Origin: an uncultured Syntrophales bacterium | GTDB lineage: Bacteria; Desulfobacterota; Syntrophia; Syntrophales; JADFWA01 | Length of the DNA: 45,426 nt | Direction: 5' to 3' | Assembly (NCBI GenBank): GCA_964652795.1 | Contig: CAZZBF010000001.1 | Coordinates: 49,593-95,018 of the forward strand | In this document: piece by piece, positions 6,939 through 38,173 of the stretch | Layout: every line of letters starts with the position of its first letter | Numbering within the stretch: the first letter of the stretch is position 1 | The notes under the pieces: model-generated | The model's database searches: none | Told to the model about the DNA's origin: nothing | What the model saw: the letters and a program-made list of their open reading frames with translations, nothing else | Made by a program: the position numbers and the translations under genes

Positions 6939-8372
6939 CTACTTTTTTTCTGTTTTTTCCGGCCGGGTCACATTCCCTGTCATGACATACTCGTGAATGC
7001 TCGCGGCGGCGGTTTTTCCGGCGCCCATCGCGGAGATTACCGTGGCGGCGCCCGTTACGATATCACCGCCGGCGAAGACGCCTTTTTTGGAAGTTTCGAG
7101 CGTGTCCGGATCACACTCCAGCGTGCCCCAGCGGGTAGTCTTCAGATCCGGCGTGGTCATAGGAATAAGCGGATTCGGAAGGTTGCCGAGCGCGGGGATA
7201 ACCGTGTCACATTCAATGATAAACTCGCTGCCCTCGACGGGTACCGGCCTGCGGCGACCGGAATCGTCCGGCTCACCGAGTTCCATCTTTACGCACTCAA
7301 CGGCTTTTACCCTGCCCTCTTCGTCGCCGATGATCCGTACAGGATTTGTGAGGAGTTTAAATTCAATACCTTCTTCCTCGGCGTGGTGGATTTCCTCATC
7401 ACGTGCCGGCATCTCCTCGCGGCTTCGCCTGTAAACTATCACAGATTCAGCCCCGAGCCTGATGGCGGTCCGGGCCGAGTCCATCGCCACGTTGCCGCCT
7501 CCTATGGTAACGGTTCTCCGGCTCCTGATAGGCGCGGTTCCGTACTCGGGAAACCTGAATGCCTTCATCAGGTTCGATCTTGTGAGGTACTCGTTTGCCG
7601 AATAGACACCGACGAGGTTTTCGCCGGGGATACCCATGAACATGGGAAGTCCGGCGCCGGTAGCTATAAATACGGAATCGTAACCATTTTGAAGAAGTTC
7701 CTCCACGGTGCGCGCTTTGCCGACTACATAATCCGTAATTATCTCAACGCCGAGCCTTTTAAGGTAGTCGATCTCATACTTGACGATTTCCTTGGGCAGG
7801 CGGAATTCGGGGATGCCGTATACCAGAACCCCTCCCGTTTCGTGAAGCGCTTCAAAGACTGTGACGCCATGCCCTAATTTAATAAGATCGCCGGCAACGG
7901 TGAGTCCCGCGGGCCCCGCTCCGATTATAGCCACCTTTTTGCCCGTCGGTTCGGCGATTTCAGGCATTTCAGACTTACCGTTTCTCCGTTCATAATCGGC
8001 GGCAAACCGCTCAAGGCGTCCAATAGCCACCGGTTCACCCTTTTTACCGAGGACGCATTTAATCTCGCACTGAGTTTCCTGGGGGCATACACGGCCGGTA
8101 ACCGCGGGCAGGGCATTCTGTTCTTTCAGCTTCCACGCCGCCTCAATAAATTTGCCTTCCTCGATGAGTTTGATGAAACCCGGGATATCTATGTTCACAG
8201 GACACCCCGTTACGCAAAGAGGTTTCTTGCATTTGATACAGCGCTTTGCTTCCATCACGGCAAGCTCTTCAGTGAAACCGTACGGCACTTCCTCAAAATT
8301 GTGCTTTCGTCTTTTCGGGTCCTGTTCAGGCATTTTCTGCCTGGGAATTTTCTGTCTTTCCTTGGGATCCAT
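6939..8372 (-). CDS. NfnB / SudA / GltD-like FAD- and NAD(P)-binding oxidoreductase with two [4Fe-4S] clusters
   Basis: GltD-type N-terminus (EAKRCIKCKKPLCVTGCPVNIDIPGFIKLI...GRVCPQETQCEIKCV) followed by a Rossmann fold (KVAIIGAGPAGLTVAG). The length of 477 aa fits the family. AGGAA lies 6 nt upstream of the ATG. It is the last gene of the nuoE-F-G/nfnA operon. Confidence 0.8.
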   Translation of the reverse strand: MDPKERQKIPRQKMPEQDPKRRKHNFEEVPYGFTEELAVMEAKRCIKCKKPLCVTGCPVNIDIPGFIKLIEEGKFIEAAWKLKEQNALPAVTGRVCPQETQCEIKCVLGKKGEPVAIGRLERFAADYERRNGKSEMPEIAEPTGKKVAIIGAGPAGLTVAGDLIKLGHGVTVFEALHETGGVLVYGIPEFRLPKEIVKYEIDYLKRLGVEIITDYVVGKARTVEELLQNGYDSVFIATGAGLPMFMGIPGENLVGVYSANEYLTRSNLMKAFRFPEYGTAPIRSRRTVTIGGGNVAMDSARTAIRLGAESVIVYRRSREEMPARDEEIHHAEEEGIEFKLLTNPVRIIGDEEGRVKAVECVKMELGEPDDSGRRRPVPVEGSEFIIECDTVIPALGNLPNPLIPMTTPDLKTTRWGTLECDPDTLETSKKGVFAGGDIVTGAATVISAMGAGKTAAASIHEYVMTGNVTRPEKTEKK

Positions 8373-10910: not shown

Positions 10911-10968
10911 TATTGTCTTTACTCCTGTTTTTCCGAGCCTGTCTCACACGGGCATATAAACCGGAATA

Positions 10969-12786
10969 TCATTTCCGGCCTGATGTCTTTTGTACCGCGT
11001 CAAAGGGACACACACTGAAGCACATGCCGCAGCGTATACATCTTTCTTCGTGGATGACAAAAGCCTCCGGCGGTTTCACGGAACCTGTAATAGCGTCGGT
11101 CGGACAGTCTTTCTTGCAGAGACCGCATGACTTGCACGTTTCGGCATCGATGGCGTATGTCAAAAGCGCCTTGCACGCAAGAGCGGGACACCGTCCTTCG
11201 GTAATATGAGCTTCGTATTCGTCCCGAAAATGTTCGATAGTTGTAAGTACCGGGTTCGGGGCCGTCTGGCCGAGACCGCAAAGTGAGGCGTCTTTGATAA
11301 CCCCGCACAATTTCTCCAGAGTATCGATGTCATCCGGCCTCCCTTTCCCTTCCGTAATGTCATTCAGAATGCGAAGCACGTGCTGTGTGCCCATTCTGCA
11401 TGGAGTACATTTGCCGCAGGATTCATTTTCCGTAAAGGAAAGGAAGTATCTCGCGATATCAACCATGCAGGAATCCTCGTCCATAACAACCATACCGCCT
11501 GAACCCATGATCGAACCGACCTTCGCGAGCTCATCAAAATCTACCTTCATATCGAGAAATTGAGCCGGAATGCAGCCGCCGGACGGACCGCCTGTCTGCA
11601 CCGCCTTGAATTTTTTGCCGTCCGGGATACCTCCGCCGATTCCGAATATTATTTCGCGAAGGGTTGTTCCCATCGGAACTTCTATCAAGCCGCTGTTCGC
11701 TACTTTTCCGGTAAGGGCGAAGACCGCGGTGCCGGGACTTTTTTCAGTGCCGATACCGGCAAACCAGTCTGCCCCTTTATTAATAATCTCCGGAATGTAT
11801 GACAGGGTTTTTACGTTATTGATTATGGTCGGCCTGCCCCACAGCCCCTTCTGCGCTGGGAAAGGCGGACGTGTACGGGGCATCCCTCTGGATCCTTCGA
11901 TAGAAGCTATCAACCCGGTCTCCTCTCCGCACACAAAAGCTCCCGCGCCCTGGAATATTTTTAAATCGAAGCTGAAATCACTGCCCGCTATGTTGCCGCC
12001 TAAAAATCCTTTCTCCCTGGCCTGTGATACGGCGATGTAAAGGCGCTTGACGGCTAACGGGTATTCCGCGCGCACATATATAAAACCTTTCGTCGCGCCT
12101 ATGGCGTAGCCCGCGATGATCATTCCCTCTATAACCTGATGCGGGTTGGCTTCCAGAATAGACCTGTCCATAAACGCGCCCGGGTCACCTTCATCCGCGT
12201 TACAGATTATGTATTTCTGATCGGCGTTCTCATCCCGGCAAAACTTCCATTTTACGGCCGCCGGAAAACCGGCGCCGCCTCTTCCACGGAGTCCCGATTT
12301 TTTTATCGTTTCGATAACATCTTCCGGGGTCATTTCATGGAGGACTTTTTCGGTCGCCTGATACACCCCCGCGTTAATGGAATCCTCGATTACCTCGGGG
12401 TTGATGTGACCGCAATTTTTAAGGACTATACGTTCCTGTCCCGCGTAAAAAGGAATGTCCCTGTAGCACTTGACCGGTTCGTCAGTTGCGGGATCACGAT
12501 AAAACAGGCGTTCAACCGGTTTATTATTCTTCAGGTGAGACTCGACAATTTCGGGAACATCTTTTTCCTTCACTGCCGAGTAAAAAACACCTTCAGGTTC
12601 AATAATAACTATCGGGCCTCTCTGGCAGAAACCGTGACAGCCCGTAAATTTCACGTTAATTCCCCCGAGGCCGGCCTTCTTAACTTCGGCTTCGATAGCA
12701 CCGTAAATATCAACAGACCCCGAAGACACACAGCCCGTACCCAGGCAAACAAGAACAGTGCGGCCATTGTCATTTGAATTAGTCAT
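10969..12786 (-). CDS. NuoF / HydB / HndC-like NAD(P)H-binding flavoprotein subunit with an N-terminal thioredoxin-like [2Fe-2S] domain and C-terminal 2x[4Fe-4S]
   Basis: Motifs GRGGAGFP and ESCGKCTPCR (NuoF FMN/NADH/4Fe-4S), an N-terminal CLGTGC...CHGFCQRGP, and C-terminal CKSCGLCKKDCP and CIRCGMCFSVCP. The ATGA start/stop overlap couples it to the upstream nuoE-like gene. Confidence 0.85.
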   Translation of the reverse strand: MTNSNDNGRTVLVCLGTGCVSSGSVDIYGAIEAEVKKAGLGGINVKFTGCHGFCQRGPIVIIEPEGVFYSAVKEKDVPEIVESHLKNNKPVERLFYRDPATDEPVKCYRDIPFYAGQERIVLKNCGHINPEVIEDSINAGVYQATEKVLHEMTPEDVIETIKKSGLRGRGGAGFPAAVKWKFCRDENADQKYIICNADEGDPGAFMDRSILEANPHQVIEGMIIAGYAIGATKGFIYVRAEYPLAVKRLYIAVSQAREKGFLGGNIAGSDFSFDLKIFQGAGAFVCGEETGLIASIEGSRGMPRTRPPFPAQKGLWGRPTIINNVKTLSYIPEIINKGADWFAGIGTEKSPGTAVFALTGKVANSGLIEVPMGTTLREIIFGIGGGIPDGKKFKAVQTGGPSGGCIPAQFLDMKVDFDELAKVGSIMGSGGMVVMDEDSCMVDIARYFLSFTENESCGKCTPCRMGTQHVLRILNDITEGKGRPDDIDTLEKLCGVIKDASLCGLGQTAPNPVLTTIEHFRDEYEAHITEGRCPALACKALLTYAIDAETCKSCGLCKKDCPTDAITGSVKPPEAFVIHEERCIRCGMCFSVCPFDAVQKTSGRK

Positions 12787-15478: not shown

Positions 15479-16411
15479 ATGCCAAAGCCTGCTTTCTGGA
15501 ACAATTCCAAAAGATATTATGATTTTAAGAGCTTCCTGATTAACAAATTCGGGTGCAAGGTCTACAAGCTGCAGATTGATGCAGGCTTTACCTGCCCGAA
15601 TCGTGATGGAGCAATCTCAACAGGAGGATGTACATACTGTGACGGCCGTGGTTCACGCCTGAGACAGAAAGGCTCTCTTCCCTCCGTAACCGAACAGATT
15701 GAACAGAGCAAAAAATATTACAGAAAAAAAAGGAGCGCCGCAAAATTCATCGCCTATTTTCAGACCTTCACGAATACTTACGGTCACTACAAAAAACTCA
15801 AGGCACTTTACGACGAGGCACTTGCGCAAAAAGATATGGTAGGCCTTGCCGTCGGAACACGACCCGACTGCGTTCCCGATGAGGTAATCGATCTATTTGA
15901 AGAATACGCGAATGATTATCACGTATGGGTGGAATATGGGCTTCAATCCATTCATGAAAAAACTCTGAAGAGTATCAATCGCGGACATGGACCCGAAGTG
16001 TTTCTTGATGCCGTCCGCAGAACCGCCGGGAAAAATATTAACATCTGTGTTCACATCATTGTCGGACTTCCCGGAGAAAACTACAAAGAGATTCTTGAAA
16101 CAGCGAGGGTTGTTGCCGGTCTGCCGATCAACGGGATCAAGATACATCTTCTTCTAGCCCTTAAGGGAACGGTCATCGGAGATCTATACAAAGAAGATAA
16201 AATAACGATGTTGGACAAGGAGGAATACGTCGGCACCGTCTGCGACATACTCGAGATATTGCCCCCGGAGGTAACGATTCAGAGATTGACGGCTGACGGT
16301 TACAGGGACATTTATTTAGCCCCGCAGTGGGGAATTAACAAGATGGATGTCCTCAATTCCATCGACAGAGAACTCGAAAAGAGAAATTCTTTCCAAGGAG
16401 CAAATTTTTGA
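15479..16411 (+). CDS. Radical SAM protein of the TIGR01212 (YhcC-like) family
   Basis: Carries the [18 protein letters not shown] motif of the CPNRDG-type radical-SAM family. It is divergent from mnmG. Confidence 0.75.
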
Positions 16412-16542
16412 AGCCATTCCTCTCTTTAACTCCATTGCGGATTTTCCGCATAGATGCCTTTATTTATGCTTCTCTAGGGTGTTAAAATCTAAATAAGATT
16501 TATATTTACTAGTTTTTTTACACCTCACTGCAATTTTGCAAT

Positions 16543-16571
16543 TGACAATTGCTTATCTGGGTGATATTAGA
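16543..16571 (+). promoter_or_regulatory. Sigma70-like promoter candidate (TTGACA-N17-TATTAG) overlapped by the inverted repeat GCAATTgacAATTGC
   Basis: TTGACA at 16543-16548 and TATTAG 17 nt downstream. A perfect 6-bp inverted repeat GCAATT-N3-AATTGC, together with a third GCAATT direct repeat, spans the -35 element. This is a possible operator. Confidence 0.3.
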
Positions 16572-16596
16572 TCGGCAAAAGGTTACCGATTGCCAT

Positions 16597-17616
16597 ATGA
16601 ACACCACTTTCCATCCCAACAACGTAGAGAAAAAAACCATAATCATCTTGGAGATTCTGGCTAACGCAGAATGCCCAATGGGGTCTCGATTGATATCAAG
16701 ATGCCTGAAGGATCAAGGCGTGACATTGAGTGAAAGAGCTGTCAGATATCATCTCAAGTTGATGGATGAACGTGGGCTCACAAAGTATATAGACAAGCAT
16801 GTTGGCAGAACTATTACGGAGTTGGGCATTGAGGAGATAGGCAGTGCCAGAGTGCAGGACAAAATAGGATTCGCTATTTCACGAATAGAAAATCTTGCTT
16901 TCAGAACAACCTTTGATCCTCAAAAGGGGCAAGGTCTTCTCCCCGTAAATGTCTCTTTTTTCCTTAAAGAACAATTCAAAGAGGCATTGGAAGCTATGGT
17001 TCCAGCTTTTAATGCTGGCCTTTTCGTAAGCGAACTTGTGGCTTTTGCCGAAGCAGGAAAAAGGCTTGGCGGGATACTTGTTCCGGAAGGCAGGGTCGGA
17101 TTCGCAACCGTCTGCAGTATTGTAATTAATGGTGTGCTTCTGAAAAACGGCGTCCCCCTGGACTCCAAGTTCGGAGGCATCTTGCAGTTAAAGGACGGAA
17201 AACCCCTGCGCTTCGTCGAGCTTATCTATTATTCGGGCTCTTCTCTAGATCCCTCGGAGGCTTTTATACAGGGAAAGATGACTTCCGTCGGGAAGGCATC
17301 GGAAAAGGGAGAAGGAAAAATCGTCGCAAACTTTCGAGATTTTCCTGTTCTTTGTCTAAATACGGTGGAGAAATTAACCTGTGAACTGAAGCGGGTAGGG
17401 ATAGGAGGTGTTCTTTCGATCGGCAAGGTAAGCGAACCGATCTGTCAGATTCTGGTAGATGTGAACAAGGTTGGGATGATCCTTGTGGGAGGAATGAACC
17501 CCGTGGCATGTGCCCAGGAAGCAGGATTCAGTGCGGAGAATTATGCCATGTCAACGGTAATGGATTACGGTGAATTAATTAATTTCCAAGAATTACGTAA
17601 CAAAGAATTATCATAG
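16597..17616 (+). CDS. NrpR-like nitrogen regulatory protein (N-terminal winged HTH plus a DUF128/NrpR-type domain). Assignment is tentative.
   Basis: N-terminal wHTH (KKTIIILEILANAECPMGSRLISRCLKDQGVTLSERAVRYHLKLMDERGL), about 270 aa of glycine-rich alpha/beta domain, and a length of about 340 aa match the single-domain NrpR architecture. It lies immediately upstream of gdhA. Start taken at ATG 16597 (MNTTFHP) rather than the upstream TTG. Confidence 0.45.
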   Translation: MNTTFHPNNVEKKTIIILEILANAECPMGSRLISRCLKDQGVTLSERAVRYHLKLMDERGLTKYIDKHVGRTITELGIEEIGSARVQDKIGFAISRIENLAFRTTFDPQKGQGLLPVNVSFFLKEQFKEALEAMVPAFNAGLFVSELVAFAEAGKRLGGILVPEGRVGFATVCSIVINGVLLKNGVPLDSKFGGILQLKDGKPLRFVELIYYSGSSLDPSEAFIQGKMTSVGKASEKGEGKIVANFRDFPVLCLNTVEKLTCELKRVGIGGVLSIGKVSEPICQILVDVNKVGMILVGGMNPVACAQEAGFSAENYAMSTVMDYGELINFQELRNKELS

Positions 17617-17676
17617 TTAAACAGAAAGATTTCAAAACAGAGGCAGTTGCCAAAAATATAAGAGAAGGAGATAAAA

Positions 17677-19026
17677 ATGAAAGAATTTATCAAAATGTGT
17701 GAGGTGAAAAATCCGGGTCAGCCGGAGTTTATCCAGGCCGTGTCGGAGGTTGCAGAATCGGTTAAACCTGTTTTAGACAAACATCCTGAGTACCGCAAGG
17801 CAAAGATAATGGAGCGGGTGGTTGAACCCGAGAGAACAATTATGTGCCGGGTTTCCTGGCTTGATGATAACGGCGAGGTTCAGGTCAGCAAGGGCTATCG
17901 TATTCAGGTGAATAGTGCCATAGGTCCGTTTAAAGGAGGCTTTCGCTTTCATCCGTCAGTCAATATGAGTATACTTAAGTTTCTCGGCTTTGAGCAGGTC
18001 TTTAAAAACGCACTGACAACCCTTCCAATGGGTGGCGCCAAGGGAGGATCGGATTTCGATCCCAAGGGGAAATCGGATAACGAAGTAATGCGTTTCTGCC
18101 AGAGTTTCATGACCGAAATGTTCAGACATATCGGGCCGGATACCGATGTTCCTGCAGGAGATATTGGAGTGGGTGCTCGTGAAATAGGATACATGTTCGG
18201 TATGTATAAAAAGCTGCAGAATGAATTTACCGGTGTTTTGACCGGTAAAGGTCTTGAATGGGGAGGAAGTCTCATTCGCCCTGAAGCTACCGGTTACGGC
18301 TGTGTCTATTTTGCCTCCGAAATGCTGGCAACAAAAAAAGATACCATGAAAAACAAGCTCTGTCTGGTTTCAGGTTCCGGGAATGTATCTCAGTATACTG
18401 TTGAAAAAATTTTGGAGCTGGGAGGAAAGGTAGTAACACTTTCTGATTCTTCTGGATACATCTACGATGAGAAGGGAATAAACAGGAAAAAACTCGATTT
18501 TGTCATGCACCTTAAAAATGTGGCACGGGGACGCATCAAGGAATATGCGGACAAGTATCCCGAAGCGGTTTATACTCCCATCGATCCCGCTCTTGATTAC
18601 AATCCACTTTGGAATCATAAGGCTGATTGCGCGTTTCCTTCCGCGACGCAGAACGAAATAAATGGCAAGGATGCTCAGAACCTGATCAACAATGGTGTCT
18701 ATGTAGTGGCCGAAGGTGCGAATATGCCCACAGTTCCAGCGGGCATTGACGTCTTTTTGGACAGTAAGATTTTATATGGGCCAGGGAAAGCAGCTAATGC
18801 CGGTGGTGTTTCTGTTTCTGGTCTTGAGATGTCCCAGAACAGCATGCGCTTAAGCTGGTCTCGTGAAGAGGTAGATAAACATCTTCACGACATTATGAGA
18901 AAGATACACAAGGCCTGTGTTGAGGCATCCGAAGAATACGGCACTCCCGGCAATTACGTAAACGGCGCCAATATAGCCGGATTTACAAAGGTTGCTAACG
19001 CAATGATGGCTCAGGGAGTAGTTTAG
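17677..19026 (+). CDS. gdhA: NADP-specific glutamate dehydrogenase
   Basis: Full-length GdhA-type hexameric GDH (KGGFRFHPSVNMSILKFLGFEQVFKNALTTLPMGGAKGGSDFDPKGKSD...). AGGAG RBS is present. Confidence 0.9.
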   Translation: MKEFIKMCEVKNPGQPEFIQAVSEVAESVKPVLDKHPEYRKAKIMERVVEPERTIMCRVSWLDDNGEVQVSKGYRIQVNSAIGPFKGGFRFHPSVNMSILKFLGFEQVFKNALTTLPMGGAKGGSDFDPKGKSDNEVMRFCQSFMTEMFRHIGPDTDVPAGDIGVGAREIGYMFGMYKKLQNEFTGVLTGKGLEWGGSLIRPEATGYGCVYFASEMLATKKDTMKNKLCLVSGSGNVSQYTVEKILELGGKVVTLSDSSGYIYDEKGINRKKLDFVMHLKNVARGRIKEYADKYPEAVYTPIDPALDYNPLWNHKADCAFPSATQNEINGKDAQNLINNGVYVVAEGANMPTVPAGIDVFLDSKILYGPGKAANAGGVSVSGLEMSQNSMRLSWSREEVDKHLHDIMRKIHKACVEASEEYGTPGNYVNGANIAGFTKVANAMMAQGVV

Positions 19027-21403: not shown

Positions 21404-22015
21404 TTATGCCGTCCCGTCCCACTCACAAAAATTTTTTAATATCCGAAGGCCGTGTCTTCCGCTTTTTTCAGGGTGAAACTGCATTGCGAGAACGTTCCCC
21501 TTCCCGATGATTGATGCAAACTCAACCCCGTATTCGGCCGTTGCTACGACGTCGTCGCGCCGCTCCGGATCGGGATAATATGAATGGACAAAATAGTATT
21601 GCGCTCTCTCATCAATACCGGCGAGAACGGGATGCGGGCGGACAGCGCTAATATTGTTCCATCCCATGTGGGGAATTTTCAAATTGGCAGTACGAAACTT
21701 TTTCGCACTACCCCGTATCACACCGAGACAGGAAGCGCTATTTTCTTCGCTCCTGTCGAGGACTATCTGAGCACCGAGACATATCCCCAGAAACGGGACT
21801 CCTCCGCCAATCACGTCATATATCACTTGATCGAGACCCGACGTTTTCATGACATCCATCGCGGCACCTGCCGCTCCAACGCCCGGTAATATGACTCTTT
21901 CGGCAGACAGTATTTCCAGCGGCCTGTCGGTTATACGGCACTCCTTACCTATGTGGACAAGGGCCCTCTCAACGGACGTAAGATTTCCCGCTTTGTAATC
22001 AATTATTGCTATCAT
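21404..22015 (-). CDS. hisH: Imidazole glycerol phosphate synthase glutaminase subunit HisH (class I GATase)
   Basis: [19 protein letters not shown]...[11 protein letters not shown]...[11 protein letters not shown]...HSYY. It overlaps the upstream GlmS-like gene's stop by 17 nt. Confidence 0.85.
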
Positions 22016-25000
22016 GCTCGTTCGATGAATCAGTCTCCTTTAATTTCATCATTTTGCCGACAATCATATCGACACCCTCGCCCAAGAGAAATTCAATAGA
22101 AATTTTGTCAAGGTACGTATCGTCCCAGTTAAGGTTATACTCATTGACAAGATTGAAGATTTTATTGAATTTATCTCCGAGAACTTCTTTCTTCTCCGCC
22201 GCCGTCAAATCGTCCCTGAAAACAACATGAAGTAGCAGGATATGTCTGATCCTATGGTTTTTACCCAGGACCGACATGATAATGATCGAAGCTTTATCCA
22301 ACTTCCCAAGTCCCGCATATATTTCTCCGGTTCTTATGATCGTTCGCTTGGTTCCCAGAAGAGCGCGTTTTTCTTCAACCCTCGATTTCATTTCCAGTGA
22401 AATTCCGCCTCTTTCACGAATTGATATAACTGTATCTTCTCCCGGGGTTCCGTCGACATCAAGATTTTCAACGTCATACAGGGTATAACCACGAATTTTG
22501 GATAGTGCCCCTTGGAGCCTTCGCGCGGCGGCCCCATCTTTGGTCGTAAGATTTTCCAGCGAAAATTCGAGATCTTTCAAGAAATCGAAGATGATTCCTT
22601 TGATCATTTCACCCTTTCTGCTTGTACCCACCGTAACGGTTTTCGCCTGGTGCCTGATTGCATCGATGGGGCGTGACAACTCATCGATGGCTTTGCCAAG
22701 ACAGATATCCAGCATGTCGAGAGGAGATGAGGAAATTCTTTTGTCTCTAAATTCTTCCCAGAAGTCCTCCAGCGGCAATTTTCCGATACTATACTTTAAA
22801 AGAAGCGGCATATCTGAGGCAATCTCGGTGCTCAGGGAAGAAAAAAAGCCCTTATTTTTTCTTAAATTAAATGCTTTGGTAAAATCCGCTACGATTTTAT
22901 GGAGTCCAGTGTTTGCAATCTTTTCGAAGAGTGTTTCGTTTCTGGCATCAAGTTCCAGCACCTTGTGTGATAAGGTATTCCTGAAATTCTTAAAAAATTC
23001 CCCTTCTTCATTAATACTGCAGGCCGCGTAATAACCCCATATATGTCCCGCTAACGTATTAAGTATGACCGCTGTAGAGAATGTTGACCTCGGGACGTAA
23101 ATGACCGAATCCGCCACATGATCAAATCTCGTTTCATCTTCGTCTGTAATGACAACAACCGATCCCTCATGAGCTTTAAAGATTGCAGCGTCTTTAACTA
23201 TATCTTCTACAACGGTTTCGGGGGTACCTGCCGCACAGACGATGATAAGCGGTTCGGCGGAAAGGTCTATATGTTTCTTGTTTTCCACTATATCGGACGA
23301 TATGGTCTTGTAACACAGTTCGCTCAACTTTATTCTGATCTCATCGGCGGCAACTTTATTTGAACCGCTCCCGACCACTGCCCAGTATTTCTTTTCTTTT
23401 ACAACGTCCCATGCCGATTCACGTATTTTTTCCTTAATAGCAATGACTCTGTCCATTTTTCCGGGAGCACCCTCCAGGTCGACGAGTTCCCTAGTGATTT
23501 GATCATCCGTCATTGTACCCGATATCTTTGCAAAATAGAGCGCGAGGATGTACCCGGCGATTATCTGAGAGTAAAATGCCTTTGTCGATGCAACGGACAT
23601 TTCTATATCTCTACCATCACTGGTATAAAAAACCCCATCGGTCATGTGGGTAATATCCGACTGTCGCCGGTTCACGATAGCTATGGAATGTGCTCCACGT
23701 TCTATTGCCATTGCAACCGCTCGATTTGTGTCAGTCGTCGTGCCCGATTGCGTAACCGCAATGACTAGGGCATGATCAAATTTGTCCTGGAGGGAAAATC
23801 CGCTTAATTCCGAAGCTGTCTTCGCCTCAATATGCAAGTCTCGACCCCTTAAATATTTTGAAAAAGCCTCAACTATTGCAGCGCCGGCTACAGCGGCCGT
23901 TCCCTGGCCTACGACAAAAATAGTTTTGATATTACCGTTTATAATTGCCTCCGACAATGCAGGGGGTATGATATCATTTCCCAGATTGAAGACAACGTTA
24001 TCAGTCGCTCCGTCCTCTTTATATTTTATATGATATTTGCCGCGCATCGTCTTTTGCGCGGAAAGGGGTGCCTCGAAAATCTCTTTCAACAGATAGTGGG
24101 GATAGCCCTTTCGATCGATATCGCGCGTGGTAATCTCCGCTTTCGCCACACAATTATCAGAAATAGGAAGAGCGTGTCCGTCGTAATACAAGGCCTTGAT
24201 TCCCTGAACACCTCCCCCGGCTTTTCGATCAAGGACAAAAATTTGTCCTTTCGTCGCTTGATCTCCCGGAACTCTTTCCGATTCACCATCCATCTTTATG
24301 AACTTAGATGTTACTTCCATCAGCCCGTATAATTCGGAGGAATACATGAATTGTTCGTCACAAAGGCCTATATAAAGAGACTGGCCGCTTCCGCGGAGCG
24401 CAAGAAATACTTTATCTGGTTCGAGGTCACTGCTCATGGCGATAGCGTGAGACCCTTCAAAATCATTCAGGGCAAGGCGAAAGGCCTCCAGAAGAGAGTG
24501 TCCCGAGGAAAGATACCGCTCGATCTGAAGTGGTACTATCTTCGTATCCGTTTTCACGGTATCGTCTATGAGTGATTGTCCTCCTGTTTCAATCCCCACC
24601 CTTAGTGTAGAGTAATTATCTATATCCCCGTTTAAAGCCGCATTGATTGACCAGTTCCCTTCTCCGTAGTGAGGATAATACTTTAGCGGCAAAAAAGATC
24701 CCGAGTCTTCATCGAATACTTTGTCCAGGGTGAAATTATTGATGGGATGACAATTTTCTTCAGTGATGGACCCCACCGATGCCCATCTTGTATGAGCCAT
24801 ATAGGAATCCATTGCAATCGGTTTATGAATAACCGTCTGGAATATCCGATCATTTCGGATTCGATCTCGCAAATACCTGCCGTTTTCCCCAAGTTCACCG
24901 GTTACCGATGCTTTTTTATACGTAAACGATAGAATGACCGGGATGCCTTCTCTGCCATTTTTTGTTGCGTGGATAGAACCGTCATGTAGATCGCCCGGTT

Positions 25001-25793
25001 CTACCCGGTTCAGCCATTCATCATAGAGATTTTTTGTTTTAAAATTCTCGATTAACGTATCGAGATCCTTCGTTTGCTCCATAGTAAAAGTGATTTGTAT
25101 ACCAGCAGAATCTCTCCCCCTTACCTCTAAATTGTCAATTGCATTTAATAACAGATTGATATTTCTGTATTTTCTAAGACTTTCCCGGGGAATATCCGCT
25201 TTTTTGTCCGTTCCGGCAAGAAAGAAAAATCCGTCAATATTGGCAAGGATGTCTTTTTCGAGGGCCCACGACGCATCTTTCAGACGAATGATCGAATTGT
25301 TAATATGTTCCATCTGTCCGGAGGTGAAACCGAACACATATTTTTCAATAAAGTCTTCTTCTTGTTCTATAAAGGCCTTCAGGTTCTCCGAAAGACGGGA
25401 AATATTTTGTATACCGTCATCCGTAAAAAAAACGTGCTCAAAAGTTGAATCTTCCTTCAAAATCTTGATAGCATTTTCTAAATCATTAAGTGCCGCTGGG
25501 CTTCCAAGGTAATCAACAGTATTCAGCGATTTATTGACTATTTTTTCTATACCGGTCCCCTGAATCACATTACAATTACTGGTAATGCGATTGACGATGT
25601 CATCGTCTCCGGCTGCGGCATCTCCTTTGATCGTAAGGATTCCCGCAAGACCGCACAACAGGGTATCGGGAAGAATAGGAAATAGAAGTATCGAACCGGG
25701 TGGCACAGTTCGAATATCACGCCCGATATAAATGTTTAGATACTTGAAAAAATTCCATATTCTTGCTGAAATTTTTTTGATGGGTTTTAACAT
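21999..25793 (-). CDS. Expanded (1264 aa) GlmS-family class-II glutamine amidotransferase with tandem SIS domains
   Basis: A 46-aa N-terminal leader precedes CGLAGIL (Ntn Cys). A ~190-aa insertion precedes RGRDSAGI, followed by HTRWASVG and NGDIDNY. The GlmS inter-domain linker KGYPHYLLKEIFEAP is present. Two SIS domains follow (GQGTAAVAG, VTQSGTTTDT) and a GlmS-like tail AKTVTVG. After that comes a ~230-aa C-terminal region of unknown nature. Confidence 0.7.
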   Translation of the reverse strand: MLKPIKKISARIWNFFKYLNIYIGRDIRTVPPGSILLFPILPDTLLCGLAGILTIKGDAAAGDDDIVNRITSNCNVIQGTGIEKIVNKSLNTVDYLGSPAALNDLENAIKILKEDSTFEHVFFTDDGIQNISRLSENLKAFIEQEEDFIEKYVFGFTSGQMEHINNSIIRLKDASWALEKDILANIDGFFFLAGTDKKADIPRESLRKYRNINLLLNAIDNLEVRGRDSAGIQITFTMEQTKDLDTLIENFKTKNLYDEWLNRVEPGDLHDGSIHATKNGREGIPVILSFTYKKASVTGELGENGRYLRDRIRNDRIFQTVIHKPIAMDSYMAHTRWASVGSITEENCHPINNFTLDKVFDEDSGSFLPLKYYPHYGEGNWSINAALNGDIDNYSTLRVGIETGGQSLIDDTVKTDTKIVPLQIERYLSSGHSLLEAFRLALNDFEGSHAIAMSSDLEPDKVFLALRGSGQSLYIGLCDEQFMYSSELYGLMEVTSKFIKMDGESERVPGDQATKGQIFVLDRKAGGGVQGIKALYYDGHALPISDNCVAKAEITTRDIDRKGYPHYLLKEIFEAPLSAQKTMRGKYHIKYKEDGATDNVVFNLGNDIIPPALSEAIINGNIKTIFVVGQGTAAVAGAAIVEAFSKYLRGRDLHIEAKTASELSGFSLQDKFDHALVIAVTQSGTTTDTNRAVAMAIERGAHSIAIVNRRQSDITHMTDGVFYTSDGRDIEMSVASTKAFYSQIIAGYILALYFAKISGTMTDDQITRELVDLEGAPGKMDRVIAIKEKIRESAWDVVKEKKYWAVVGSGSNKVAADEIRIKLSELCYKTISSDIVENKKHIDLSAEPLIIVCAAGTPETVVEDIVKDAAIFKAHEGSVVVITDEDETRFDHVADSVIYVPRSTFSTAVILNTLAGHIWGYYAACSINEEGEFFKNFRNTLSHKVLELDARNETLFEKIANTGLHKIVADFTKAFNLRKNKGFFSSLSTEIASDMPLLLKYSIGKLPLEDFWEEFRDKRISSSPLDMLDICLGKAIDELSRPIDAIRHQAKTVTVGTSRKGEMIKGIIFDFLKDLEFSLENLTTKDGAAARRLQGALSKIRGYTLYDVENLDVDGTPGEDTVISIRERGGISLEMKSRVEEKRALLGTKRTIIRTGEIYAGLGKLDKASIIIMSVLGKNHRIRHILLLHVVFRDDLTAAEKKEVLGDKFNKIFNLVNEYNLNWDDTYLDKISIEFLLGEGVDMIVGKMMKLKETDSSNEHDSNN

Positions 25794-27514: not shown

Positions 27515-29668
27515 TTACGCTACATCTTCACTAACCAATTCTTCCAGAAATTCTGCCTGAATTGCACCTCGCGGGCAAATATTCACACACGTATAACAGA
27601 GGGAACACCGCGCGGGATCAATTGTGAAGATCTCCCCGTTCCGTGTAATCGCTTCCTGAGGACAGTTGTCGATACATTTATCACAATATATACAGGTACC
27701 GCAACTCATACACCGGTCTATATCTTCCTTCTCATCACCGAAATAAATCAATTGCATTCTCCTGGTCGGAACGAGCCGTTTTTCCGGATACACAAACTTC
27801 TTACCCGTAAGGTTCGCATCGATTTCCATGGCCGCCAGTCGACCCGAGCCAATCGCGTCGGTAAGAATCCCGGGTTTTACTATATCGCCGCATCCGTATA
27901 CTTTCTTGTTACTGCTTTTAGATGATTTATCGGCGGTAATCATGTACCCTCGTTCATCTATGAAGACAGATTCGTGTAAAAATGATGTATCAGGTGCCTC
28001 ACCGATACTGATGAAGACAACATCGGCCTTTTCAGGCTTTCCTTCCGTAAAATATACATTCTCCGAGTCAAGTTTTTTAACAAACTTCGGCCAGAGTATT
28101 TTGGTTCCCCTCTCTTCTGCCAGCATCAGTTCTTTCCCGAAGGCCAGCGGTTTTTGAATATCTACAGCCGTCACCATTTTAGCTCCAAGGCGCCAGGCCT
28201 CACAGGCTATATCCATACCGACATTACCGGCACCGATTATGACAACGTTTTTATCCGAAAGATCCATCGGTCTCCCTTCATTAATATCAATGAGAAACTG
28301 GAGACCCGAAAGTATCCTCTCACCGCCTTCATACGGTATCCTTTTGGTTACCTGTGCTCCAGTGGCTACAACGATGACATCACTTGCATCGTAAATATCC
28401 TGCAAAGATTCCCTGTCAATCTTTACACCCAGGTTAAATTCAATCGGGAGAGTTCTGATCCTTTTTATATCTTTGTCAAGCAATTCATCGGAGAGACGTT
28501 CCTGCGGAATTGCCTTTCTGGCTTTTCCTCCCAGGCTATCCATAGAATCGTAAACCTTGACCTTATACCCTCTCCGGGAAAGCTGCCACGCCGCCGAAAG
28601 TCCCGCAGGTCCGGCACCGATGATCGAAATAGTCTCGTTCTTCTTCCCCTTTATCGTCGGCTTGAAATTCGGATAATATTTCCGGGCAAGCTCCTGTACC
28701 GGGACAGGCCCGTCAATCAAGTTTCTGGTACATGCTTCCATGCATGGGGCAGGACATGTAGTACCACACACCGTCGTGCGGAATGGCGAGAACTCATCCA
28801 TTAAAAGCTGCGCTTCTTTTACTTTCCCGTCTTTTATCAAATTAAAAAATACCGGCGTCGGAATTCCCGTGGGACAGTTGAATGTACATGGAGGTGTCAG
28901 ATTGAAATGTTTCGGCACCTGTGTTTTTATATTCATTCCCGGAGTATATAAACTGGCAAACGGCCGGTGTCCCCGTCTCGTAATTTTCACAAAATCGTTA
29001 ACCGAAATACCGGACAGATCGATATTTATATCTTTCCCGTATTCCATGAGACTTGTCTTAAGGAATCCTGTGTCGTCTTTGTCCATATCCCCGAAGATAG
29101 CACCGGTTCCGAGCTGATATTTCTGCACGTCACCTCTAACATAAATAACACCTCCGTGGATCCCCGTTCCGACGCTGCCACCCACCGGCAATGATTTTCC
29201 TTCAAGATTAAGAACTATTACCCTTCCACCTGCCATATATTCACCGCAGTAATCTTTTGCGGTCCCTCCTATAATAAGCCAGGGAATCTGGTCAAAATAC
29301 TCTTTCATGTGGATGGCGGCCCTGTATTCGACATCTCCTTTAATAAAGACCTTGCCGCCCCGCATAGAATGTCCCGGTATCTCTCCCGCCTTTCCATGAA
29401 TTACTATTTTTCCGGCATTCATTGTATTGGCCAGACCATCCTGGGCGTTTCCGTAAACGATAAGGGTAGGACCATTTAAGAATGCTCCCAGGTCCTGTCC
29501 GGGTGTACCGTATATGTGAAATTCCGCGTTGCCGTCAAGACCGCCGGCGAGGTATCTCTGTCCCAGGACACCCTTGAGGACAATCTCTTTCTCACCCCGT
29601 GAAAGTAATCCCCGTATCTGCCTGTTTAACGTTTTGTAATATAATCCTTTTGCAACGATCGTGATCAT
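27515..29668 (-). CDS. Glutamate synthase GXGXG domain (GltB domain 3) fused to a GltD-like FAD/NAD(P) oxidoreductase and a C-terminal 2x[4Fe-4S] ferredoxin
   Basis: N-terminus GVLGQRYLAGGLDGNAEFHIYGTPGQDLGAFLNGPTLIVYGNAQDGLANTMNAGKIVIHG (GXGXG repeats). The middle carries CPTGIPTPVFFNLIKDGKVKEA...CGTTCPAPCMEAC and IIGAGPAGLSAAWQL (GltD-type). The C-terminus carries CMSCGTCIYCDKCIDNCP and CSLCYTCVNICP. Confidence 0.75.
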   Translation of the reverse strand: MITIVAKGLYYKTLNRQIRGLLSRGEKEIVLKGVLGQRYLAGGLDGNAEFHIYGTPGQDLGAFLNGPTLIVYGNAQDGLANTMNAGKIVIHGKAGEIPGHSMRGGKVFIKGDVEYRAAIHMKEYFDQIPWLIIGGTAKDYCGEYMAGGRVIVLNLEGKSLPVGGSVGTGIHGGVIYVRGDVQKYQLGTGAIFGDMDKDDTGFLKTSLMEYGKDINIDLSGISVNDFVKITRRGHRPFASLYTPGMNIKTQVPKHFNLTPPCTFNCPTGIPTPVFFNLIKDGKVKEAQLLMDEFSPFRTTVCGTTCPAPCMEACTRNLIDGPVPVQELARKYYPNFKPTIKGKKNETISIIGAGPAGLSAAWQLSRRGYKVKVYDSMDSLGGKARKAIPQERLSDELLDKDIKRIRTLPIEFNLGVKIDRESLQDIYDASDVIVVATGAQVTKRIPYEGGERILSGLQFLIDINEGRPMDLSDKNVVIIGAGNVGMDIACEAWRLGAKMVTAVDIQKPLAFGKELMLAEERGTKILWPKFVKKLDSENVYFTEGKPEKADVVFISIGEAPDTSFLHESVFIDERGYMITADKSSKSSNKKVYGCGDIVKPGILTDAIGSGRLAAMEIDANLTGKKFVYPEKRLVPTRRMQLIYFGDEKEDIDRCMSCGTCIYCDKCIDNCPQEAITRNGEIFTIDPARCSLCYTCVNICPRGAIQAEFLEELVSEDVA

Positions 29669-29671
29669 GTA

Positions 29672-31195
29672 TCAATCTCCGGCATGCTTAATTCCGAGAA
29701 TGCGCAATTCCTCGCTGTTCATGCCCACACCTCTCAATCGATTTCTATTTCCCCTTATCGCCTCTATAGCACTGATTCCCATGGACCCCATCAGTTCCTT
29801 GATCTCCTCTCCCCAAGCATGGAGGAGGTTTTTCAATGCCTCTGCCGCCTCACCCACATCGATCCTCTCAGCCAATCCCGGTTTGTTTGTCGTAATTCCG
29901 TACGGACACTTGCCGGTAAAGCACCGCTGGCACATACCGCATCCCAGTGATATGAGAACCGGTGTGGCTACATAAACCGCGTCAGCGCCAAGACAGATAG
30001 CTTTCAAAACATCTGAAGAACTTTGAATCCCTCCCGATGCAACAAGACTGACTTTATTCCTGATACCCTCTTCGGTCAATCGTCTGTCTGCTGCAGAAAT
30101 GGCAAGTTCAATAGGAATCCCCGTATTCTGGCGGATCTGAAGCGGCGTTGCGCCTGTACCGCCTCGAAAACCATCGATGGCGATAATATCCGCCCCGGCT
30201 CGGGCAATACCGCTTGCAATGGGAGCAACATTGTTAACGGCTGAAATCTTTACTGAAACCGGAATCTTGTAGTCAGTTGCCTCTTTTATTGCAAAAATGA
30301 GCTGTCTCAAATCTTCGATCGAATAAATGTCGTGATGAGGTGCCGGCGACAACGCATCGGTGCCTTCCGGGATCATCCGCGTCTGCGATATCGCTTCCGA
30401 GACCTTCTCCCCCGGAAGATGGCCGCCTATCCCAGGCTTTGCTCCCTGCCCTATTTTTATCTCCACTGCCGCAGCCGATTTCAGGTAGTCCTCGCTTACA
30501 CCAAATCGGCCTGACGCTACCTGGACGATTGTATTCTGTCCGTACTGTCTCAGTTTCTGATGAAAACCGCCTTCTCCCGTATTCCAGTAGGTTCCAACTT
30601 CCTTTGTCGCTATTGCTTCCGCTTCCTGGACGCGAAGATTCACGGCCCCAAAACTCATGGCTCCAAACATTATAGGAACTTCAAGCTGAAGCTGCGGACC
30701 AACTTCTCCCCCATAGTGGTCAGATTTGCCTCCAAGATATCGTCGAATCTCCATCGGTTCCCGGAGCGGATCTATCGAAGGGTTCGTTACCTGACAGGCA
30801 TCGAACATCATATGGTCAAAGTATCTCTTTTGAGGGCCTGTAGCCCCGGTTCCAACCAACAAAACGCCGCCTTTCGATCCCGCCTGGCGCCAGATATTGC
30901 TGACATGATGGGGCGTCCAGTACCCATGAGACGTATGCATAGGTTGATTAACAACGTGAATTGCTCGGTGAGGACACATTTTGACACATCTCTGGCATGC
31001 ATTGCAGGCGCTCATATTCGCCCACGGTTGATAGAGGACAGTACCGTTTCTCCCCTTGACAGGTTTCAGCGATATTTCTCCGAAGGAACATTCACCCACA
31101 CAGATCCGGCACCCGTTTTCATAGTCACACCGCAACAGGTCGAACTCTGGATAAAACGAAGGCATTATTTTCCAGTTATTCTTCATGTGAGCCAT
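29672..31195 (-). CDS. Glutamate synthase FMN-binding catalytic domain protein (archaeal-type GltB domain 2) with an N-terminal 2x[4Fe-4S] ferredoxin
   Basis: CRICVGECSFGEI...CNACQRCVKMCP, then a GltB central-domain signature (GAMSFGAVNLRVQEAEAIATKEVGTYWNTGEGG...VKISAVNNVAPIASGIARAGADIIAIDGFRGGTGATP). The ATG shares one nucleotide with the upstream gene's TAA. Confidence 0.85.
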   Translation of the reverse strand: MAHMKNNWKIMPSFYPEFDLLRCDYENGCRICVGECSFGEISLKPVKGRNGTVLYQPWANMSACNACQRCVKMCPHRAIHVVNQPMHTSHGYWTPHHVSNIWRQAGSKGGVLLVGTGATGPQKRYFDHMMFDACQVTNPSIDPLREPMEIRRYLGGKSDHYGGEVGPQLQLEVPIMFGAMSFGAVNLRVQEAEAIATKEVGTYWNTGEGGFHQKLRQYGQNTIVQVASGRFGVSEDYLKSAAAVEIKIGQGAKPGIGGHLPGEKVSEAISQTRMIPEGTDALSPAPHHDIYSIEDLRQLIFAIKEATDYKIPVSVKISAVNNVAPIASGIARAGADIIAIDGFRGGTGATPLQIRQNTGIPIELAISAADRRLTEEGIRNKVSLVASGGIQSSSDVLKAICLGADAVYVATPVLISLGCGMCQRCFTGKCPYGITTNKPGLAERIDVGEAAEALKNLLHAWGEEIKELMGSMGISAIEAIRGNRNRLRGVGMNSEELRILGIKHAGD

Positions 31196-34489: not shown

Positions 34490-34505
34490 GGCAACATGTG
34501 TGCCA
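34490..34505 (-). promoter_or_regulatory. Sigma54 (-24/-12) promoter for the GS-GOGAT-amidotransferase operon
   Basis: The minus strand reads TGGCAC-acatg-TTGCC (GG-N10-GC), about 145 nt upstream of the glnA ATG at 34344. Confidence 0.55.
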
Positions 34506-34638: not shown

Positions 34639-36210
34639 TTAGGTACGATATCGCTTGGTGTTTATATTAAATTTCTGTATCCGGAGACCGATAATCCTTT
34701 CACTTGTGCCGAGTATTTGTGCCGCCTTTGCTATATTTCCGCGGGTTGTCTTGAGTGCATCCATTATCAAATCTCTCTCCAGTCCCTCCAGCTCACCTTG
34801 AAGGGTACCATAGGGAATTGTACCCGTAGACGTTGATGTCTGAAGCGTTGGCGGGAGGTGGTATCCGTAAATAACACCTTCATTGCTGAGAAGTACGGCA
34901 CGCTCAATACAATTCTCCAGTTCCCGTACATTACCCGGCCAGTGGTAGCTCATAAGCATATCGATCGCGTGAGTACACGTTCGCTGAATCCTCTTATTAT
35001 TCGCTTTAGCGTATCTCTCCACAAAAAAGTCAGTGAGCAGCAATATGTCTGTTTTCCGCTCACGAAGCGGCGGGATATAGATAGGAAAGACATTCAATCG
35101 GTAATATAAATCCTCCCTGAATTTCCCTTCTTCCATCAGCTTTTCAAGGTTTCGATTCGTTGCGGCAATAATTCGTACATCGACTTTTATCGTGGTTGTC
35201 GCACCAACTCTTTCAAATTCCCGTTCCTGAAGCACCCTCAATAACCGTATCTGAACCATGGGTGGAAGATCTCCCACCTCGTCGAGGAAGATGGTGCCTC
35301 CCTGTGCCATTTCAAATCGACCTTTCCTCTCATGCGTTGCACCGGTAAAAGCGCCTTTCTCATGTCCGAATAGTTCGCTTTCCAGGACAGTCTCCGGTAA
35401 GGCCGCACAATTTACCTTTATGAAAGGTTTATTTGCCCTCAGGCTATTATAATGAATCGCGTTTGCTACTAATTCCTTACCGGTTCCACTCTCACCACGA
35501 ATCATAACGGTAGCGTTGCTTTTAGAGACCTGCGCGATAAGGTCATAGACCTCTTTCATACCCTTCGATTTTCCGATGATATTTGATGGTTCAAAGCGTT
35601 CCTTCAGCTCACTTTGCAGGCGCAGATTTTCTTGAATAAGTATTTCACGTTCTTCCTGTATCTCCTGACGAAGCCGTACTGCCTGAGCTACCATTGACGC
35701 AATAATTGAGAGCAGGCGCACATCCTCTTTGAGGGATATGGACCCCTCAAAGAGTCTGTCGGCACTCAGCGTGCCGATCACCTCCGCCCCTATTTTTATC
35801 GGTACACATATAAATGAAATATCCTCTTTTTTGAGGTCTTTACGGGCACCGGTTCTGTCTAAAAACATCGGCTCATTGGAAATGTGCGGAACTATGACGG
35901 GTTGACCCGTCTCCACAACTTTGCCTATAACACCCTCACCTATCTGATATCTTCCTCTTCTTCGCTGTAATTCCGATAGGCCATGAGCCGCTTCCATATA
36001 AATCTCTTCCGTTCTTCGATTAACGAGGGTCAGCGCACCCCGCGCCATGCCCATCCTTTCCGCCAGCGCATTCAATACAGGCCCCACCACTTCACGAAGG
36101 TCCATGCTGCGCCCGAGCGCCTGACTGACCTCCCAGAGAAGTTTAAGCTCCTTGATTTCTCTGTTGGATTTAACTTCCTTCTCTTCTTCAATACTTACCA
36201 TACTTACCAT
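34639..36210 (-). CDS. Sigma54-dependent transcriptional activator with GAF, AAA+ and Fis-type HTH domains (NifA-like architecture)
   Basis: N-terminal GAF ([19 protein letters not shown]...), then an AAA+ sigma54-interaction domain ([35 protein letters not shown]) and a C-terminal HTH ([16 protein letters not shown]). AGGAG RBS lies 9 nt upstream of the ATG at 36210. Confidence 0.85.
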
Positions 36211-36504: not shown

Positions 36505-36520
36505 TGGCACCATATTTGCT
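36505..36520 (+). promoter_or_regulatory. Sigma54 (-24/-12) promoter for the amtB-glnB-glnA operon
   Basis: TGGCAC-catat-TTGCT (GG-N10-GC), about 50 nt upstream of the amtB ATG. Imperfect inverted-repeat arms GTACCACCATTAT (36408-36420) and ATAAGTGGTAAT (36442-36453) lie 60-100 bp upstream as a candidate UAS. Confidence 0.6.
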
Positions 36521-36569
36521 TAGCACCAAATTGTAGTATTTGCGATAAATCAATTTGGAGGTTTTTGGA

Positions 36570-37796: not shown

Positions 37797-37807
37797 GAGG
37801 ATTAACA

Positions 37808-38146: not shown

Positions 38147-38173
38147 CTTACAAGAATAGAAGGAGTTATGTTT

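Follow-up and report, generated by a model that had tools for sequence, protein, structure and literature searches.

Which genes would an archaeal-type nitrogen repressor control in a bacterium, and through which DNA site would it act? This question is raised by a 45,426-nt stretch of the genome of an uncultured Syntrophales bacterium (contig CAZZBF010000001.1; here called the window), in which a gene for a protein of the NrpR family, nrpR, stands directly upstream of gdhA, the gene of an NADP-specific glutamate dehydrogenase (GDH). NrpR has so far been studied only in methanogens. Our comparison of related loci points to a palindrome at the start of nrpR as the site of action. Judging from this comparison, nrpR and gdhA probably form an autorepressed operon in which NrpR would sit on the start-site palindrome and would probably be released by 2-oxoglutarate.

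NrpR and its linkage to glutamate-forming enzymes

The product of nrpR has 339 residues and combines two domains. Residues 15-81 match the winged-helix profile HTH_12 (PF08461; E 3.6e-18, 65.7 bits against a cut-off of 21.4), and residues 90-327 match the profile of the NrpR regulatory domain (NRD), NRD1_2 (PF01995; E 3.4e-81), over profile positions 1-236 of 238. The sole relative of solved structure found by sequence was the NRD of MJ0159 from M. jannaschii (PDB 3NEK, E 1.4e-25). By sequence, the protein is a member of the NrpR family (COG1693 / DUF128) with a winged helix and a single NRD. This architecture had been claimed in the original prediction, made from the DNA sequence alone, and the profile searches suggested there, against HTH_12 and the DUF128/NrpR-type NRD, both gave significant matches far above the cut-offs. 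A search of NCBIfam with the protein returned only noise and no NrpR model, the family being represented in Pfam and not in NCBIfam. A longer reading frame starting at TTG 16549 was rejected, as it would place the -35 box inside the gene and as the homologues align from residue 1. The recognition helix reads SERAVRYHLK in the window protein and GERAVRYHM/L in four archaeal-type proteins with two NRDs, one of them from a cluster named Methanosphaera. Among 107 bacterial homologues the helix S-E-R-A-V-R-Y-H-L-K is invariant.

Relatives of this protein are numerous. When 5.8 billion proteins were searched with the window NrpR, 5769 matches were obtained at E <= 1e-10. The best 120 of these 5769 are 62-91% identical to the query and 331-408 residues long (nearly all 334-355), and all of them have both domains. 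In data with one genome per species at least 524 stretches encode a relative; the labels of the best 80 of the 524 are almost all Syntrophales, Syntrophaceae, Smithella or Deltaproteobacteria. Clustered at 50%, the family in its entirety has only 687 representatives (E <= 1e-3). Two relatives, from the loci L001 and L002 (related loci are numbered in this way throughout), are 91% identical to the window NrpR and belong to a syntenic block mnmG-mnmL-nrpR-gdhA-cobQ-hisF. The identification as NrpR is correct but not new, since it is already found in public annotation: relatives by the thousands carry the names NrpR or DUF128, and several close ones have been labelled 'global nitrogen regulator NrpRI' by JGI. 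Moreover, NrpR homologues in Dehalococcoides were reported in 2007 and attributed to lateral transfer from archaea (PMC1852104). The word unusual, which the original prediction applied to a bacterial NrpR acting next to a sigma-54/GAF activator, was therefore an overstatement. Our literature search found no account of a bacterial NrpR operator or of a link between NrpR and glutamate dehydrogenase; key subscription papers lay beyond its reach, and a prior description is possible.

The gene that follows nrpR is gdhA, as had been noted from the sequence. We counted this linkage in the Syntrophales-type loci that extend for at least 1300 nt beyond nrpR, 68 in number. A gdh gene on the same strand was found within 400 nt downstream of nrpR in 55 of the 68 loci, while the remaining neighbours vary freely. 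The linked gdh genes are of two kinds: 34 encode the GdhA type of the window and 21 a different GDH of about 410 residues (L009, L010, L012-L015, L018 and others), which is only 30-33% identical to the window GdhA, with the linkage kept. This non-orthologous displacement of gdh under retained linkage argues for functional coupling. In 11 of the 13 loci without gdh, a protein of 529 residues with a Glu_synthase domain (PF01645) is encoded in that place. Altogether, nrpR is followed by a gdh or a Glu_synthase-domain gene on the same strand in 66 of the 68 loci. The spacers between nrpR and gdh are short across the loci and have only a strong ribosome-binding site in common. As far as gene order and domain content can tell, the conserved unit is nrpR together with an enzyme that turns 2-oxoglutarate into glutamate. 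Since the linked enzymes, GDH and the Glu_synthase-domain protein, consume 2-oxoglutarate, the linkage fits, without proving it, the idea that 2-oxoglutarate is the inducer.

The protein that replaces GDH has 522-529 residues (MNLRQPNANEATGTFNRS...) and only a partial match to PF01645. It takes the place of gdh beside nrpR in L017 (5073-6662), L024, L026, L036, L042, L050, L055, L056, L060, L061 and L075 as well as in L096 (1399-2967). It may be an FMN-type glutamate-synthase-like enzyme without prior characterisation.

The nrpR promoter and its conserved palindrome

For the comparison of promoters, 75 sequences were used (74 loci and the window), and 69 unique orthologous promoters were aligned on TTGACA. 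The consensus of this alignment reads aattTTtt-n-a-TTGACA, followed after 17 nt by TAG, which in the window is part of TATTAG. The promoter TTGACA-17-TATTAG, which the original prediction had proposed, is present at its predicted position, and both its TTGACA and its TAG are conserved among the orthologous promoters. Further downstream, 72 of the 75 promoters have a palindrome CGGCAA-N4-TTGCCG with no more than two mismatches (none in 23, one in 45 and two in 5), and it starts mostly 31-33 nt after the first T of TTGACA. In the window the palindrome begins 2 nt after the -10 hexamer and thus spans the expected transcription start. A site over the transcription start is in the classical position of a repressor. 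The palindrome is followed by a third half-site, which reads (A/T)TTGCC or ATGCC in the Syntrophales-type sites; in the window this is TTGCC, ending at 16594, just before the nrpR ATG at 16597.

In the window nothing but this palindrome rises above background. With a weight matrix derived from the orthologous sites, of which 44 unique ones were used and the window's own was excluded, the window palindrome scored 26.0 bits; the runner-up in the 45 kb, inside pyrG, scored 14.2 bits, and the maxima of 30 shuffles reached up to 19.6 bits. Related loci totalling about 1 Mb contained 131 matches to the loose motif; 100 of these were located at nrpR's own promoter, and the other 31 were at about chance level. 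Two matches in L078 (1058-1290) were discarded as an assembly or scaffolding artefact, a 60-nt flank being duplicated there around a run of N. In L096 the promoter with the predicted operator heads the gltS-like gene (1399-2967), and nrpR comes next. From this arrangement it appears that the palindrome belongs to the front end of the operon, irrespective of the place of nrpR in it.

Upstream of the -35 box a further element was noticed. A palindromic T-tract, ACAATTTTGTA, is located directly 5' of the -35 box in L050, L055, L061, L062, L066, L072, L073, L076, L079 and others, and its counterpart in the window is GCAATTTTGCA (16530-16541). This T-tract is possibly UP-element-like or the site of another factor.

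The original prediction had located the operator elsewhere. In the model that follows from it, NrpR would repress its own gene through GCAATT-gac-AATTGC, which overlaps the -35 box, with a third GCAATT as an auxiliary site. The hexamers exist (GCAATT at 16530-16535 and 16538-16543, AATTGC at 16547-16552), and the palindrome does overlap TTGACA. It is, however, not conserved: L001 and L002, in spite of NrpR proteins 91% identical to that of the window, read GTAATTGACAATTGC (ACAATTTTGTAATTGACAATTGC) there and have lost the left arm. In the 69 aligned promoters the right arm falls in columns of the -35/-10 spacer with essentially no information, and the left arm merely overlaps the conserved T-tract and the -35 box. 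Besides, palindromes of this size are common. In the window, 177 perfect inverted repeats were counted (6-bp arms, spacer of 0-10 nt), of which 16 have a spacer of 3 nt; about 0.7 such repeats are expected per 185 nt, and the A/T-rich 185-nt spacer upstream of nrpR has four distinct ones. Elsewhere in the window GCAATT-N3-AATTGC has a single match with two mismatches, inside a gene. The scan recommended earlier, for this motif or GGAA-N6-TTCC upstream of glnA, amtB and gdhA, yielded nothing in the window. The only GGAA-N6-TTCC across the window (10963-10976) lies over the start of a nuoF-like gene, and one such match is expected by chance. The proposed palindrome also bears no likeness to the known NrpR operator (PMC2723118). 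From these comparisons, GCAATT-gac-AATTGC and the third GCAATT are probably a lineage-specific coincidence, no more than expected by chance, and a model in which NrpR acts through them is hardly credible. Autoregulation as such, which had also been predicted, is likely, but through the start-site palindrome CGGCAA-N4-TTRCCG with its TTGCC half-site (16572-16594), conserved in the promoters as described. A perfect palindrome on a -35 box may thus be a coincidence that masks the real site 30 nt downstream.

The conserved palindrome can be related to the operator of the archaeal regulators, for which the consensus GGAAN6TTCC has been described (PMC2723118). GGAA-N6-TTCC and GGCAA-N4-TTGCC share one 14-nt frame. 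To this comparison a second set of 80 loci from more distant relatives, found with a 7-sequence alignment, contributed a sister clade of 57 loci (L099-L160), which resembles L080, labelled Dehalococcoidia. The NrpR proteins of this sister clade share 52-61% identity with that of the window. GGnAA-N4-TTnCC was found within 150 nt upstream of nrpR in 43 of these 57 loci. The exact archaeal form GGAA-N6-TTCC is present in 28 of the 57; in 26 loci the sequence of the site is GGAAA-N4-TTTCC. Moreover, the layout of the promoter recurs: in 30 of the 43 loci with the motif, GG is placed exactly 30 nt after the start of TTGACA, past a -10 box of the TATTGT type, and the site is again trailed by a third half-site, here TAYTRCC. 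Of the arm positions, only the third varies in the two clades, and it can be C, A, T or G. No covariation was seen between this base and the recognition helix, which is the same in all 107 bacterial homologues. As the helix stays the same whatever the third base, it probably does not recognise that base. The site accompanies the regulator gene, agrees with the known operator and is faced by a helix that does not change; the simplest view is that it is NrpR's own operator.

In the sister clade and in L080 (4988-5758), the gene directly after nrpR, which in some cases overlaps it, encodes a HisF paralogue (PF00977) with about 45% identity to the window hisF; after it, gdh, a gltS-like gene or nuoEF is often found. 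A second, divergently transcribed nrpR paralogue (37-40% identical) lies just upstream on the minus strand in L008 (2405-3379), L011 (2409-3383), L142 (1617-2594) and L156 (1635-2636). Such paralogues occur in both clades and recall the 'two homologues' reported for Dehalococcoides. A distant high-GC clade (L081-L095, L097, L098, L102, L104, L105, L108, L110) consists of single-NRD homologues with no adjoining gdh; three of its loci (L088, L102 and L105) have a divergent gene resembling the amidotransferase of glutamate synthase (GOGAT).

Proposed regulation and competing explanations

In the mechanism that we favour, nrpR and gdhA would be transcribed as a two-gene operon from the sigma-70-type promoter TTGACA-17-TGaTATTAG. 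NrpR would bind to GGCAA-N4-TTACC, assisted by the third half-site TTGCC, and from the start-site palindrome it would block RNA polymerase, so that both nrpR and gdhA would be repressed. As with NrpR of archaea, the effector that releases the protein would be 2-oxoglutarate. Accumulation of 2-oxoglutarate would then lead to the production of GDH, which consumes it in glutamate synthesis. The genes glnA1 and amt-glnK-glnA2 would be driven separately, by their sigma-54 promoters and a NifA-like activator with a GAF domain.

Several observations weigh against this mechanism. The -10 box is non-canonical, being TATTAG in the window and TAGnnn among the relatives, and a generic promoter scan made no call at the nrpR promoter because TATTAG ends in G and not in T. 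The right arm of the window palindrome carries one mismatch, TTACCG, and the window site GGCAA-N4-TTACC departs from the exact archaeal consensus GGAA-N6-TTCC, with the same 14-nt frame and with GG...CC kept. In the distant high-GC clade, whose proteins are 40-47% identical, GGnAA-N4-TTnCC is mostly lacking, and the regulatory wiring may be different there. The genome was seen over 45 kb, and other targets, for example nif, are possible. Induction of GDH at high 2-oxoglutarate would be the reverse of what enterobacteria do; bacterial NrpR may have come to respond to a different effector. Our search found no binding, transcription-start or expression data for any bacterial NrpR. Archaeal nrpR genes were reported not to be nitrogen-regulated (PMC9765008), and autoregulation would therefore be without precedent among the characterised NrpRs.

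Other explanations of the palindrome have to be considered as well. It could function as RNA, namely as a hairpin in a short 5' leader that affects translation or mRNA stability, and not as a DNA operator. Pairing of the arms is feasible, purines often prevail in the 4-nt loop (AGGA, GAGG, AAGG), and the third base differs between clades in the left as well as in the right arm (GGAAA/TTTCC, GGCAA/TTGCC, GGTAA/TTACC). Nevertheless, the 45 unique Syntrophales sites contain 21 uncompensated breaks of inner pairs (C.A 8, A.G 3+5, A.A 5) against 1 compensated change, and the commonest variant has a fixed C.A mismatch. The identities of GG, AA, TT and CC are invariant, which fits read-out by a protein; the loop occurs as 24 different tetramers, so that there is no conserved Shine-Dalgarno sequence in it, and the distance from the -35 box is fixed. 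No Rfam family covers the hairpin, a search of 16300-17800 having given no relevant match at E <= 1. We rejected the RNA hairpin on the pair counts and consider it highly improbable. A sigma-54 promoter (GG-N10-GC) in place of an operator is suggested by the superficial likeness of GGCAA-N4-TTGCC to TGGCAC-N5-TTGC. This identity was rejected too, because the spacing is GG-N9-GC, one base short of the exact 10 nt that are required. Moreover, GGAAA-N4-TTTCC of the sister clade has no GC element, the genuine sigma-54 promoters of the window look different, and a conserved -35 and -10 lie immediately upstream; the chance that the palindrome is a sigma-54 promoter is close to nil. The palindrome might also be the operator of another transcription factor, with NrpR acting elsewhere in the genome, as binding of NrpR at this site is a prediction and only flanks of a few kb were covered. 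We regard this as improbable in view of a site that travels with nrpR over two bacterial clades, whatever the neighbours, of the exact archaeal NrpR consensus in one of these clades, and of a recognition helix that is common to the bacterial and archaeal proteins.

A further question concerns the scope of the regulator. NrpR could have the global role in nitrogen regulation that it has in methanogens, with many operators in the genome, for instance at nif or other transporter genes, and that of nrpR-gdhA as only one among them. In archaea the targets of NrpR are nif, glnA, glnK-amtB and molybdate transport (PMC2723118), and 45 kb of the genome were seen, in which the NifA-like activator suggests that nif genes exist. 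Yet the window contains two glnA genes, amt-glnK, GOGAT, asnB and gdhA and has one site only; glnA1 and amt have sigma-54 promoters, and additional sites in the roughly 1 Mb of related flanks do not exceed chance level. A global role thus seems unlikely. We suggest tentatively, and with somewhat less than even confidence, that the bacterial NrpRs of the Syntrophales and the Dehalococcoidia-like clade are not global regulators but self-contained cassettes derived from archaea, each comprising the repressor, a GGnAA-N4-TTnCC operator and a GDH or Glu_synthase gene, with the archaeal operator re-positioned over a sigma-70 start. If true, a repressor and its operator would have been transplanted together from one domain of life to another, and the transplanted pair would render glutamate synthesis inducible by 2-oxoglutarate, in parallel to the native sigma-54 circuit; it would also suggest how such an archaeal pair can be re-used on a bacterial promoter. 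For bacterial NrpRs the comparisons provide a well-supported and testable prediction, namely a 23-bp operator at the transcription start of the nrpR-gdh (or nrpR-gltS-like) operon.

The autorepressed operon that we propose shares features with several known systems. Like the prototype, the nif and glnA repressor NrpR (MMP0607) of Methanococcus maripaludis, the window protein has the recognition helix ERAVRYH and an NRD as sensor domain, and its predicted target belongs to nitrogen assimilation. The operator, known there (PMC2723118) and predicted here, takes the form of an inverted repeat, with one 14-nt frame common to GGAA-N6-TTCC and GGCAA-N4-TTRCC, at or just downstream of the core promoter. 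In contrast, MMP0607 has two NRDs, acts on archaeal TATA/BRE promoters and regulates nif, glnA and glnK-amtB, its own gene reportedly not being nitrogen-regulated (PMC9765008), whereas the window NrpR has one NRD, a sigma-70-type promoter, a site on its own operon with a conserved third half-site, and GDH as the predicted co-transcribed enzyme. By its architecture the window protein can be likened to NrpRI of Methanosarcina mazei and Methanosarcina acetivorans, which also combines a helix-turn-helix (HTH) domain with one NRD in about 330 residues. NrpRI acts together with NrpRII, which lacks the HTH. For Methanosarcina NrpRI a model of a repressor released by 2-oxoglutarate has been put forward (bioRxiv 10.1101/2020.05.06.080432); unlike the window NrpR, it is a protein of archaea with global control over glnA1 and nif. 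NrpR of Dehalococcoides (Chloroflexota) is bacterial; the sister clade with L080 (Dehalococcoidia) has the same promoter-operator layout, with two paralogues in some loci, but keeps GGAAA-N4-TTTCC and has the order nrpR, hisF paralogue, then gdh or gltS-like gene. The same role, to tie glutamate-forming enzymes to the nitrogen status, is fulfilled by other bacterial regulators with control over gdh or a sensor for 2-oxoglutarate, namely AmtR in Corynebacterium, NtcA in cyanobacteria and TnrA/GlnR in Bacillus. These protein families and their operators are unrelated to NrpR.

Table 1. Position and supporting evidence of the regulatory elements and genes discussed (window coordinates)
Feature	Position	Strand	Evidence and remarks
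T-rich element GCAATTTTGCAA	16530..16541	+	Matches the conserved aattTTtt tract and contains the 'third GCAATT'; T-tract columns informative, flanks variable
Palindrome of the original prediction, GCAATTGACAATTGC	16538..16552	.	Present, unconserved, probably no operator
-35 hexamer TTGACA	16542..16547	+	29-34 nt upstream of the conserved palindrome in 72/75 promoters
Extended -10 TGaTATTAG	16562..16570	+	17 nt past the -35; TG 16562-16563, TATTAG 16565-16570; TAGnnn in relatives
Conserved palindrome TCGGCAA-AAGG-TTACCGA (TCGGCAAAAGGTTACCGA), predicted NrpR operator	16572..16589	.	Weight matrix, conservation; core GGCAA-N4-TTACC 16574-16587
Third half-site TTGCC	16590..16594	+	Repeats the right arm in direct orientation, 7 nt further downstream; alignment columns 18-22 = T-T-G-C-C
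nrpR, winged-helix and single-NRD regulator, 339 residues (ATG 16597, stop 17616)	16597..17616	+	Pfam, homologues, 3NEK, recognition helix
nrpR-gdhA spacer, 60 nt	17617..17676	+	Shine-Dalgarno AAGGAG at about 17665-17670; no promoter-like or terminator-like site on the + strand
gdhA, NADP-specific glutamate dehydrogenase, predicted second operon gene	17677..19026	+	NF006929 741.7 bits against a cut-off of 536; Pfam; adjacency
Sigma-54 promoter, perfect, TGGCACACATGTTGC	34491..34505	-	TGGCAC-N5-TTGC; upstream of glnA1 (33010-34344, minus)
GAF and sigma-54 activator, NifA-like	34639..36210	-	TIGR01817 equivalog, 564.5 bits against a cut-off of 528.85
Sigma-54 promoter, perfect, TGGCACCATATTTGC	36505..36519	+	TGGCAC-N5-TTGC; upstream of amt-glnK-glnA2 (36555-39589)

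The sigma-54 circuit and neighbouring genes

The window contains a second regulatory system. Both sigma-54 promoters, at glnA1 and at amt, are perfect and face outwards, with the activator gene between them, and the sigma-54/GAF activator in this neighbourhood, which the original prediction had mentioned, is NifA-like. No nif genes were found in the 45-kb window, despite this activator. Likewise, motif and weight-matrix scans of the window gave no NrpR-type site at glnA1, amt-glnK-glnA2, the split GOGAT genes or asnB. The dual layout that had been expected is thus present in that the two systems coexist, but they are found at different genes, the NrpR site only at nrpR-gdhA and the sigma-54 promoters at glnA1 and amt. 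On present evidence this suggests a division of labour in which sigma-54 and the activator would drive the genes for glutamine synthetase (GS), Amt and PII, and NrpR would control GDH and itself. In syntrophic bacteria the control of GDH would thereby be separate from that of the sigma-54-driven GS, Amt and PII genes.

The radical-SAM gene upstream of nrpR (15479-16411) was placed correctly in the original prediction; it is mnmL/ytqA (TIGR01212). This is a tRNA-modification gene that pairs with mnmG and is unrelated to nitrogen. A perfect hairpin TGCGGA-TTT-TCCGCA (16436-16450), with no clear T-run, is located 25 nt past the mnmL stop codon and may end the mnmL transcript.

Elsewhere in the window, glutamate synthase is split in archaeal fashion into three genes (27515-32259, minus strand): one is of the GATase_2 type, one combines Glu_synthase/FMN with Fe-S motifs, and in the third GXGXG is fused to a pyridine-nucleotide oxidoreductase. 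A GltD-like gene stands apart from these (6939-8372) and adjoins genes for NuoEF-like and formate-dehydrogenase-like subunits. Besides, a protein of 1264 residues, in which Pfam sees only a SIS domain of 130 residues, is encoded upstream of hisH-hisF on the minus strand (21999-25793), with a slight overlap with hisH.

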